A DNA stretch of 64,000 bases from Escherichia coli. GTDB lineage: Bacteria; Pseudomonadota; Gammaproteobacteria; Enterobacterales; Enterobacteriaceae. The stretch lies in assembly GCF_003790525.1 (NCBI RefSeq), contig NZ_CP033635.1. One strand, 5' to 3'. Under the pieces are notes generated by a model. It was not told the DNA's origin. It did no database searches and saw only the letters and a program-made list of their open reading frames with translations. Below are positions 3,315 to 52,598 of this stretch, piece by piece (positions within the stretch are counted from its first letter, which is position 1; the number at the start of each line of letters is the position of its first letter). Both the position numbers and the translations under genes were made by a program.

Positions 3315-4109
3315 ATGGATCTGTTGTACCGGGTAAAAACGCTTTGGGCCGCGCTGCGCGGTAATCATTACACCTGGCCTGCTATCGATATCTCTCTTCC
3401 CGGCAATCGCCATTTTCATCTGATCGGCAGTATTCATATGGGTAGCCACGATATGGCTCCCCTGCCCACCCGTTTGCTCAAAAAGCTCAAAAACGCCGAT
3501 GCGCTGATCGTCGAGGCGGATGTTTCCACCAGCGATACGCCTTTTGCTAATTTGCCTGCCTGCGAGGCGCTGGAAGAGCGCATTAGCGAGGAGCAACTCC
3601 AAAACCTGCAGCACATTAGCCAGGAGATGGGCATTTCTACCTCACTCTTTTCTACCCAACCGCTGTGGCAAATCGCGATGGTTCTTCAGGCGACGCAGGC
3701 ACAAAAACTGGGGCTCCGGGCAGAATATGGTATCGATTACCAGCTATTGCAGGCGGCGAAGCAACAACATAAACCCGTGATTGAACTGGAAGGGGCAGAA
3801 AACCAGATTGCCATGTTGCTCCAGCTCCCTGACAAAGGACTGGCACTGCTGGACGATACGCTGACCCACTGGCACACCAATGCACGGTTGCTGCAACAAA
3901 TGATGAGCTGGTGGCTGAATGCACCGCCGCAAAATAATGAAATAACGCTGCCCAATACGTTCAGTCAGTCGCTGTACGATGTGCTGATGCATCAGCGAAA
4001 TCTCGCCTGGCGGGATAAATTACGCGCCATGCCGCCGGGGCGATATGTGGTCGCGGTCGGTGCACTACACCTGTATGGAGAAGGGAATTTGCCGCAAATG
4101 TTGCGCTAA
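3315..4109 (+). CDS. ybaP: TraB/GumN-family protein YbaP (264 aa)
   Basis: ORF track 264 aa with GGAGG SD upstream; sequence recognised as E. coli YbaP. Confidence 0.85.
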   Translation: MDLLYRVKTLWAALRGNHYTWPAIDISLPGNRHFHLIGSIHMGSHDMAPLPTRLLKKLKNADALIVEADVSTSDTPFANLPACEALEERISEEQLQNLQHISQEMGISTSLFSTQPLWQIAMVLQATQAQKLGLRAEYGIDYQLLQAAKQQHKPVIELEGAENQIAMLLQLPDKGLALLDDTLTHWHTNARLLQQMMSWWLNAPPQNNEITLPNTFSQSLYDVLMHQRNLAWRDKLRAMPPGRYVVAVGALHLYGEGNLPQMLR

Positions 4110-4191
4110 AAAAATGGCCAATATCGCTATTGGCCCGTCAAAGAGGAATTTCATTTTTTTATTATTATGCCGTCACTTTAAGCGACGGTGT
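4108..4191 (-). ncRNA. chiX: ChiX (MicM/SroB/RybC) small regulatory RNA, 84 nt
   Basis: Reverse complement reads ACACCGTCGCTTAAAGTGACGGCATAATAATAAAAAAATGAAATTCCTCTTTGACGGGCCAATAGCGATATTGGCCATTTTTTT, i.e. the ChiX sequence with its GC hairpin and 7-U tail; convergent with ybaP. Confidence 0.85.
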
Positions 4192-9840: not shown

Positions 9841-9950
9841 TTGCCGGATAATAGGCGCGGATATGTAGGCCTGATAAGACGCGCCAGCGTCGCATCAGGC
9901 ATTGAGAGCAAAATGCCAGATGCGGCGTGAACGCCTTATCTGGCCTACGA
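9841..9950. repeat. REP/BIME cluster between convergent ybaL and gsk
   Basis: GTAGGCCTGATAAGACGCGCCAGCGTCGCATCAGGC and GCCAGATGCGGCGTGAACGCCTTATCTGGCCTAC REP units. Confidence 0.8.
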
Positions 9951-17264: not shown

Positions 17265-19196
17265 TCAAATGGGGCGGATACTTTCTTCATCCAGCTCCGC
17301 ATCGAAGAATCGACGCAGGGTCTGAATATTATTATCCGCAATAATGGACTCGCGCGCCTGCGCAAGTTTTTCTTCGTATATCGCCTGACGCCATTCCAGC
17401 GGCGTACGCACCGCGGGATTATCATCTTCAACGATAGTCAGTTCAACCGTTGAACCTTTTAACGTGCTCAACGCTTCAGCCAGTTTTTGCTGTGCGCCGC
17501 GGTTGTTCAAATGCCGCTGAGAGGAGCGCAAATGCAGACATACTGCGTTGTCGCTCTCCTCTTTCCAGGCATTTAACGCCACCTGTTCGACCAGTTTTGG
17601 TAGCGAAAGTTGACTCACCTGAGCCGCCCACGGGTCGCGCTCAATGGCTTCTGCCGCCAGCTTCGCCGCCAGTTCCGGCGTTTTTTCATGTTCCAGCGCT
17701 TTTTTCAGCGCCTTCGGCGTGGCGACCACTTCTTTTTGCTGCATCACTGGAGTGGTCGCCTTCCAGCGATACGCTTCTTTTTTGGCTGGCGCTTTTTCCA
17801 GCGCCGATGGCACCGGGCGCGCCTGAACGCGATCGGTGACCGAAGCCAGTCTTTCCAGCGCAGCGTTATTCACCGGCCGCGCGCGGGTAGCGGCTGCCGG
17901 TTCACTCTTTTTTGCTTTGGTTGCTCCCTGCACGCGCTGCAACTGCTGGCGCGCCGCCAGCACCTGGCTGGTGGTTTCCGGGAGCGGTACAGTCGGTGCC
18001 TGCTGCGGCGCTGATTGCGGTTGCGGCGGCACCTGGGTTGGCGTCATTACTGCCGTTGGCGCAACGGGCGCAAAGGACTGGCGTGGCACTTCTGGCTCAG
18101 GCAGAGGCATACGCGGATGGAACGCCAGCGCGCGCAGCAGCGTCATCTCAACGCCCATGCGGCGGTCCGGCGCATACGGTAATTCTTTGCGACCAATCAA
18201 CAGCGTTTGATAGTAAAGCTGAATATCCGTCGGCGGTATGGTACGCGCCAGTTCACGCATCCGCAGCTCGATGGCGGCCATGTCGTTGCCAAGTGCAGCA
18301 GGCGAAAGTTGTACCATCGCAATACGATGCAACAAACCGAGCATTTCCACCAGCAACGCTTCCCACTCGATACCACGGGCAGCAGCTTCATTAATTAGCG
18401 CCATTACGCGCTCGCCGTTGGCCTCGACCATCGCTTCAACCAGCGACAACGCCTGATCGTCGTCAAGCGTACCCAGCATCGCACTGACGGCCTGGGTTGA
18501 AACCTGGCCGTCACCGCTGGCAATCGCCTGGTCGGTCAGACTTAAGGCATCTCGCAAGCTGCCTTCAGCGGCGCGCGCCAGTAATTGCAACGCCCGCGGC
18601 TCGTGAGCGATATGTTCTTCGTTGAGGATGTGCTCAAGCTGATGGCGAATTTGCTCGACATCCAGCGCCTTGAGATGGAATTGCAGACAGCGCGACAAAA
18701 TCGTCACCGGCAATTTCTGCGGATCGGTCGTCGCCAGCAGAAACTTAACGTGCTCCGGCGGCTCTTCAAGGGTTTTTAACAGTGCGTTAAAGCTGTGGCG
18801 CGACAGCATATGCACTTCGTCGATGAGATAAACTTTGAAACGACCACGCGCCGGAGCGTACTGGACGTTATCCAGCAGGTCGCGAGTGTCTTCAACTTTA
18901 GTACGCGAGGCGGCGTCGATTTCAATCAGATCGACAAAGCGCCCCTGCTCGATTTCACGACAGTTATCGCACACGCCGCACGGCGTCGCGGTAATGCCGG
19001 TTTCGCAGTTTAGCCCCTTCGCCAGCAGTCGGGCGATAGAGGTTTTTCCGACGCCACGGGTACCGGAAAAAAGATAAGCATGATGAATACGCCCTAACGA
19101 CAAGCCGTTCGCCAGTGCGGTCAGCACATGTTCCTGGCCGACGACGTCAGCAAAGGTTTGTGGGCGCCATTTTCGGGCTAAGACCTGATAACTCAT
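17265..19196 (-). CDS. dnaX: DNA polymerase III subunits tau (full length, 643 aa) and gamma (via frameshift)
   Basis: ORF track 643 aa; AAA+ Walker A GTRGVGKT; contains the known frameshift heptamer. Confidence 0.97.
   Translation of the reverse strand: MSYQVLARKWRPQTFADVVGQEHVLTALANGLSLGRIHHAYLFSGTRGVGKTSIARLLAKGLNCETGITATPCGVCDNCREIEQGRFVDLIEIDAASRTKVEDTRDLLDNVQYAPARGRFKVYLIDEVHMLSRHSFNALLKTLEEPPEHVKFLLATTDPQKLPVTILSRCLQFHLKALDVEQIRHQLEHILNEEHIAHEPRALQLLARAAEGSLRDALSLTDQAIASGDGQVSTQAVSAMLGTLDDDQALSLVEAMVEANGERVMALINEAAARGIEWEALLVEMLGLLHRIAMVQLSPAALGNDMAAIELRMRELARTIPPTDIQLYYQTLLIGRKELPYAPDRRMGVEMTLLRALAFHPRMPLPEPEVPRQSFAPVAPTAVMTPTQVPPQPQSAPQQAPTVPLPETTSQVLAARQQLQRVQGATKAKKSEPAAATRARPVNNAALERLASVTDRVQARPVPSALEKAPAKKEAYRWKATTPVMQQKEVVATPKALKKALEHEKTPELAAKLAAEAIERDPWAAQVSQLSLPKLVEQVALNAWKEESDNAVCLHLRSSQRHLNNRGAQQKLAEALSTLKGSTVELTIVEDDNPAVRTPLEWRQAIYEEKLAQARESIIADNNIQTLRRFFDAELDEESIRPI
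17907..17913 (-). other. dnaX: dnaX programmed -1 ribosomal frameshift heptamer (A AAA AAG) producing the gamma subunit
   Basis: Reverse complement of 17907-17913 is AAAAAAG, in register with dnaX codons 428-430 (AKKSEPAA context); GC-rich hairpin-capable sequence follows. Confidence 0.85.
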
Positions 19197-34725: not shown

Positions 34726-34839
34726 GGGTGGGGGCCCTGCCAGCTACATCCCGGCACACGCGTCATCTGCCTTGGCTGCTTCCTTCCGGACCTGACCTGG
34801 TAAACAGAGTAGCGTTGCGGGAGAACCAACAGAGCCCCC
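34726..34839 (-). ncRNA. ffs: 4.5S RNA (signal recognition particle RNA), 114 nt
   Basis: Reverse complement reads GGGGGCTCTGTTGGTTCTCCCGCAACGCTACTCTGTTTACCAGGTCAGGTCCGGAAGGAAGCAGCCAAGGCAGATGACGCGTGTGCCGGGATGTAGCTGGCAGGGCCCCCACCC, the E. coli 4.5S RNA. Confidence 0.95.
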
Positions 34840-52411: not shown

Positions 52412-52493
52412 AGAGCTCTCTCTTAGTTTAATTTCCGCCAGGTAATCAGATGACACGACTGTGCTTCACGCCATCTATTAACATGTACGTCAG

Positions 52494-52524
52494 TATATGG
52501 GGATGTTTCCCCCACATTCAACGC
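52494..52524 (-). promoter_or_regulatory. sigma32 heat-shock promoter of lon
   Basis: Transcribed strand reads GTTGAAT-N13-CCCCATAT about 75 nt upstream of the lon ATG. Confidence 0.65.
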
Positions 52525-52536
52525 CGAGAATAGAGG

Positions 52537-52570
52537 AAAAATTAAAGGGGAGATAAAATCCCCCCTTTTT
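52537..52570 (-). terminator. Putative terminator after clpX
   Basis: Short GC stem GGGGA/TCCCC with 7-nt loop followed on the transcribed strand by TTTAATTTTT, 30 nt after the clpX stop. Confidence 0.5.
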
Positions 52571-52598
52571 GGTTAACTAATTGTATGGGAATGGTTAA

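Follow-up and report, generated by a model that had tools for sequence, protein, structure and literature searches.

The window analysed here is a stretch of Escherichia coli DNA of 64,000 nucleotides (64 kb) whose minus strand carries dnaX, together with the signals of a programmed ribosomal frameshift inside the gene. The features of the locus, each with the evidence behind its assignment, are as follows.

17265–19196, minus strand: zero-frame open reading frame of dnaX, encoding tau, 643 amino acids plus stop (list of open reading frames; identity to strain SMS-3-5; Pfam)
17902–19196, minus strand: gamma coding region, codons 1–430 in frame 0 with a −1 shift at 17907 (script; gamma coding sequence of K-12)
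17924–17929, minus strand: internal Shine-Dalgarno-like stimulator AGGGAG (sequence; positions 4–9 of the RF00382 model; PMC5389563)
17907–17913, minus strand: slippery heptamer A_AAA_AAG (register by script)
17902–17904, minus strand: UGA stop in the −1 frame, which ends gamma (script)
17872–17901, minus strand: stimulatory stem-loop (RNAfold; Rfam consensus structure; conservation in Enterobacterales)
17868–17932, minus strand: complete DnaX ribosomal frameshifting element (Rfam RF00382; RefSeq sequence_feature)

Pfam assignments divide the DnaX protein of the window into a DNA_pol3_delta2/AAA module (residues 20–178), a lid (182–230), gamma domain III (232–358), tau domain IV (417–498) and tau domain V (500–640). 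The shift at codon 430 falls after domain III and early in tau domain IV, and a slip at this position between domains would thus remove exactly the tau-specific functions.

The slippery heptamer AAAAAAG occupies positions 17913–17907 on the minus strand, inside dnaX, as read from the sequence and by script. Codon 428 (GCA) contributes its third base as the first A (nucleotide 1284 of the open reading frame), and codon 429 (AAA, 17912–17910) and codon 430 (AAG, 17909–17907) supply the rest. Relative to the zero frame, the heptamer is thus in the X_XXY_YYZ register that is prone to shifting, read as A_AAA_AAG. The run itself contains only six A residues (C AAAAAA G). Within 18020–17780 the minus strand reads GTG CAG GGA GCA ACC AAA GCA AAA AAG AGT GAA CCG and continues directly with GCA GCC GCT ACC CGC GCG CGG CCG GTG AAT, and the protein around the heptamer is RVQGATKAKKSEPAAATRAR (short form ATKAKKSEPAA). 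A spacer of 10 nt (17923–17914, CAACCAAAGC) separates AGGGAG from the heptamer. By script, a −1 slip after codon 430 leads to GAG (17907–17905) and then to UGA (17904–17902), giving a predicted gamma of 431 amino acids with the C-terminus ...KAKKE, where the −1 frame contributes the tail 'E*'. The original prediction had placed the heptamer at 17907–17913 on the minus strand, in register with dnaX codons 428–430 and in an AKKSEPAA context, and it was right on each of these points; alignment to the E. coli dnaX recoding region also returned the heptamer in register with the gene. The span proposed for the site, 17890–17920, holds in part: it takes in the heptamer and the −1 stop but, of the hairpin, only the 5' arm, and it omits the Shine-Dalgarno-like sequence at 17929–17924 as well as the 3' arm, which reaches 17872. 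The full element, 17868–17932, is slightly wider.

The identity of this element is established by comparison with characterized dnaX genes. The RF00382 covariance model matches with 96.8 bits (gathering score, 35 bits) and E = 1.9e-21 over model positions 1–65 of 65, and a scan of the whole window with Rfam recovered the same match at 17868–17932. The dnaX gene of the window shares 100% nucleotide identity with that of E. coli SMS-3-5, in whose RefSeq record the same 65 nt are already annotated as 'DnaX frameshifting element' and the gene product as 'DNA polymerase III subunit gamma/tau'. Identity to K-12 MG1655 is 98.1% (36 differences in 1932 nt), with M578T as the sole amino-acid change. 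No substitution relative to K-12 falls within nucleotides 1135–1379 of the open reading frame, and the 65-nt cassette (nucleotides 1265–1329) shows 0 differences from K-12 MG1655, so that it is base for base the cassette used in the published K-12 experiments; for the same reason, the Shine-Dalgarno spacing in K-12 is also 10 nt. The K-12 element (RF00382) thus agrees with that of the window in heptamer and register, in having AGGGAG at −10 and the hairpin at +5, in GAG-UGA, and in host gene and codons 428–431, without any difference inside the element. In the RefSeq record of K-12 MG1655, gamma is annotated as a separate coding sequence of two joined pieces, terminated by the equivalent UGA at nucleotide 1295 of the open reading frame. 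Across the species, the cassette is found at 99% identity or higher in 5372 of 5423 complete E. coli genome records (65-nt alignment). Over the whole dnaX gene, no more than 30 of 5424 complete E. coli genomes reach at least 99% identity, and the rarity of this allele indicates that the window comes from a minority lineage of the species. The element is almost certainly the dnaX tau/gamma −1 frameshift cassette, which is known and already annotated, and it is intact in the window.

Downstream of the heptamer, the transcript folds into a bulged stem-loop of 11 bp that begins 5 nt 3' of the slippery sequence. In this structure, a lower stem of 6 bp is followed by a bulged A, an upper stem of 5 bp that has two bulges, and a loop of 5 nt. 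Folding of this region had been suggested as a check for the stimulatory structure, and it returned the known bulged hairpin with an energy of −18 to −19.7 kcal/mol; the isolated hairpin was calculated by RNAfold at −18.0 kcal/mol (z −2.06, with z scores to about −2.35 over this range). The pairing that RNAfold proposed independently is the same as that of the Rfam consensus structure. In a wider context of 86 nt, the fold energy (z −0.71) is not distinguishable from that of shuffled sequences, a result of the general ease with which GC-rich coding sequence folds. As the folding-energy signal is weak, support for the hairpin comes from the covariance model, from conservation across species and from published experiments. 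Its first paired base, 17901, lies at +12 from the first P-site nucleotide, 17912, and this position matches the 11–12 nt geometry described for hairpin-induced pausing (PMC7282821).

Conservation of the hairpin was examined in other genomes, one per species, by scanning for the pattern AGGGAG-N10-AAAAAAGAGTGA, in which the hairpin was left free. With the Shine-Dalgarno-like sequence, its distance from the heptamer, the heptamer itself and the −1 stop all set by the pattern, the matches (at least 120 loci) say nothing on the conservation of these fixed parts. At least 77 of the loci are dnaX genes of Enterobacterales with the heptamer in register at approximately codon 430, in genera that include Citrobacter, Enterobacter, Kosakonia, Pluralibacter, Pantoea, Erwinia, Mixta, Serratia and Buttiauxella. 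Among the matches listed, 67 distinct cassettes were present including that of the window, and a stem at the same offset was found in 66 of the 67, that is, in 65 of the 66 others; the folding energies of 66 folded cassettes, again among the matches listed, ranged from −17.4 to −30.4 kcal/mol with a median of −21.5. In an alignment of 40 Enterobacterales cassettes, pairing holds in 98.1% of the cells of the 8-pair core stem, compared with 20–58% in slid controls in which the partners were moved by 1–3 columns, and the covariation score observed in this 40-sequence alignment was reached by no shuffle. The pair closing the hairpin is A-U in 24 of these 40 sequences and G-C in 14, and one Mixta species has replaced an internal G-C by A-U. 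Compensatory double changes occur at only two of the eight core pairs, and they probably reflect few evolutionary events. The sequences compared are phylogenetically related, and the region is protein-coding.

Other Enterobacterales dnaX cassettes carry the lower stem CCGGC/GCCGG at the same offset as the window, whereas the upper stem differs between genera: Escherichia and Citrobacter use GCCGC/GCG-GC with a 5-nt loop, while Enterobacter, Pantoea and Serratia use GCGC/GCGC with a loop of 5–8 nt. The region with these two upper-stem registers corresponds to alignment columns 44–59, equivalent to 17894–17879 of the window, and the 6-bp lower stem is nearly invariant. The sole cassette without the hairpin, out of the 67 distinct ones among the matches listed, belongs to Candidatus Pantoea persica (locus L054, 3006–3033, minus strand). 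Here the Shine-Dalgarno sequence, the heptamer and the −1 stop are kept and the canonical hairpin is lost through a short deletion, seen in the protein alignment as a gap of 5 residues that follows KKSEPAA. The efficiency of frameshifting in this organism may be reduced.

The same scan also returned loci outside dnaX. In Collinsella, at least 35 loci (e.g., locus L005, 2457–2484, plus strand) have the identical AGGGAG-N10-A_AAA_AAG-GAG-TGA arrangement of 28 nt, located at the beginning (5' end) of the gene for the primary sigma-70 factor, in which Pfam finds regions 1.1 to 4. In these genes, AGGGAG is the Shine-Dalgarno sequence of initiation, and the heptamer forms codons 2–4, in the slippery register and with an immediate −1 stop. 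A search for a hairpin after the Collinsella motif found none (fold of −5.3 kcal/mol, z +1.56). As starts of a sigma-70 gene that lack a hairpin, these loci were rejected as dnaX elements; the motif is probably a coincidence, amplified by an over-sampled genus. Other matches outside dnaX number at least 8; with 18 bases specified, about 9 would arise by chance in 2 x 298 Gb, a similar number.

Among model systems for −1 frameshifting in bacteria, dnaX is the classic one. In E. coli, 50% of the ribosomes translating it slip into the −1 frame and end translation one codon further on (PMC5009743), and the fractions given in the literature are about 50% in vivo and up to about 80% in vitro. The signals responsible are the A AAA AAG heptamer, the upstream Shine-Dalgarno sequence AGGGAG and the downstream hairpin, and their contributions have been separated by mutation: efficiency falls to about 2% when the heptamer is changed to G AAG AAG, to about 20% when the hairpin is deleted, and to about 50% when the Shine-Dalgarno sequence is mutated (PMC5389563). 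The signal is cis-acting and self-contained in reporter constructs (PMC5389563). The AAG codon is shift-prone because the only tRNA-Lys of E. coli, with the anticodon UUU, pairs better with AAA (PMC5009743). No tRNA genes were found in the 64-kb window.

Applied to the gene of the window, this mechanism would proceed as follows. A ribosome positioned at A_AAA_AAG would hold one tRNA-Lys in the P site, paired with AAA, and another in the A site, paired with AAG, while the hairpin located 5 nt downstream, at the entry channel for mRNA, would slow translocation and AGGGAG, 10 nt upstream, would pair with the 3' end of 16S rRNA. In a large fraction of ribosomes, both tRNAs would then re-pair one base back, on AAA AAA. 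The shifted ribosomes would read GAG and stop at UGA, releasing a gamma protein of 431 amino acids that comprises clamp-loader domains I–III, whereas those that remain in frame would complete the 643-amino-acid tau, adding domain IV, which binds DnaB, and domain V, which binds polymerase alpha. Both slippage and its efficiency in the window are transferred here from the experiments on the identical K-12 cassette. On the same basis, the gene would be expected to produce both tau and gamma, in a ratio of about 1:1.

A bare heptamer is not unusual in this DNA, and this is the point from which a chance origin could be argued, in which A_AAA_AAG would be an accidental run of lysine codons without recoding in this strain, for example because the signal has been inactivated by an undetected change elsewhere. 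The 64-kb window contains 21 copies of AAAAAAG (14.3 ± 3.8 expected from shuffles), three of them within dnaX by script. The register and surroundings of the copies speak against this reading. Twelve of the 21 fall in long open frames, and the A_AAA_AAG register belongs to the dnaX copy at 17913–17907 alone, which is likewise unique in having AGGGAG 10 nt 5', a −1 stop one codon on and a strong hairpin 5 nt 3'. The other 11 long-frame copies are all in the AAA_AAA_G register, a distribution that agrees with selection against slippery sites arising by accident in the genes of E. coli. Together with the identity of the full cassette to K-12, the strength of the RF00382 match (E = 1.9e-21) and the self-contained, cis-acting nature of the signal in reporters (PMC5389563), this makes a chance origin extremely unlikely.

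Two other routes to gamma are known from bacteria, and each has been considered for this gene. The gamma protein of Caulobacter crescentus is produced by proteolytic cleavage of tau (PMC5009743), so alternatives to frameshifting do exist, and if E. coli gamma were also formed by proteolysis, the heptamer and its flanks would be incidental. Such a reading would leave unexplained the conserved Shine-Dalgarno sequence, heptamer, −1 stop and hairpin and their exact spacing across Enterobacterales, and it is opposed by the 50% shift with a stop one codon on that is described for E. coli (PMC5009743), in a cassette identical to that of the window. Moreover, detection by mass spectrometry of K-12 gamma carrying a C-terminal Glu431, a residue encoded only in the −1 frame, is reported in primary literature as cited by PMC5009743. 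Proteolysis as the source of gamma is accordingly given hardly any credence here. In Thermus thermophilus, gamma arises by transcriptional slippage (PMC5009743), and RNA polymerase slipping in an analogous manner along the A run could in principle take the place of ribosomal slippage in E. coli. The run in the window, however, has 6 A residues, compared with productive runs of 9 A or T (PMC5009743), and the conserved RNA hairpin and the AGGGAG sequence complementary to the anti-Shine-Dalgarno are signals directed at the ribosome. In addition, the frameshift is reproduced when defined dnaX mRNAs are translated in vitro (PMC5389563). Slippage by the polymerase is thus likewise exceedingly improbable. 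Among the results obtained, no data contradict the explanation by a ribosomal frameshift cassette.

The two other heptamers of dnaX, at 17783–17777 and 17705–17699, were considered as tandem-slippery sites and rejected, both being in the AAA_AAA_G register. The copy at 17783–17777 (minus strand, in tau domain IV) is followed directly 3' by a 13-bp hairpin at 17774–17738, with an energy of −19.2 kcal/mol and a z score of −4.4, and none of 200 shuffles folded as well. This fold occurs only in Escherichia, namely in the window, in E. albertii and in one other locus labelled E. coli; outside the genus, the 3' arm of the hairpin lies on an amino-acid stretch that varies between genera, and the median energy of the region among the 73 segments compared is −9.5 kcal/mol. 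As a fold restricted to Escherichia with its 3' arm on a variable stretch, this second hairpin was rejected as part of the conserved signal. That the heptamer and its hairpin constitute a second, minor site of pausing or low-level recoding is very unlikely; if this were true, a third and so far undescribed DnaX isoform would exist in Escherichia, formed by a −1 shift and terminated 12 codons further on.

Transposases of the IS3 family, such as that of IS911, often use the same kind of heptamer as dnaX for their −1 shift, with an upstream Shine-Dalgarno stimulator and a downstream structure, and an upstream stimulator of this type is present in an estimated 56% of IS elements (PMC5009743). In the IS3 family, the shift fuses two open reading frames into a longer protein, whereas in dnaX it truncates the product one codon later; the downstream structure of the transposase signals can be a three-way junction (PMC5009743), while the dnaX stimulator is a simple bulged hairpin. 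The dnaX genes of T. thermophilus and C. crescentus reach the same outcome, tau and gamma from one gene (PMC5009743), by mechanisms that do not fit the anatomy of the gene in the window, namely polymerase slippage on a long A run in the former and proteolysis in the latter.

Elsewhere in the window, four Rfam families score above their gathering thresholds: sraA sRNA (52483–52578, plus strand), sroB sRNA (4108–4191, minus strand), naRNA4 (CssrE; 9868–9945, minus strand) and the small SRP RNA (ffs; 34735–34831, minus strand). All are expected features of an E. coli genome. A match to STnc460, a Salmonella sRNA, at the 3' end of dnaX (17325–17414, minus strand) reached 26 bits (E 0.046), below the gathering score of 70, and was taken as chance.

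An intact dnaX signal is an expected and ordinary feature of an E. coli genome and adds no new knowledge in itself; its significance lies in how the gene is to be read. The practical point of the original prediction, namely that the element is a recoding signal and should not be mistaken for a pseudogene lesion or a mutation hotspot, stands. Flags for a frameshift error, a pseudogene or a cryptic internal start would be wrong for the heptamer, the Shine-Dalgarno sequence within the gene and the −1 stop. The correct annotation of dnaX is that of a gene with a recoding signal and two products, tau of 643 amino acids and gamma of 431 amino acids.
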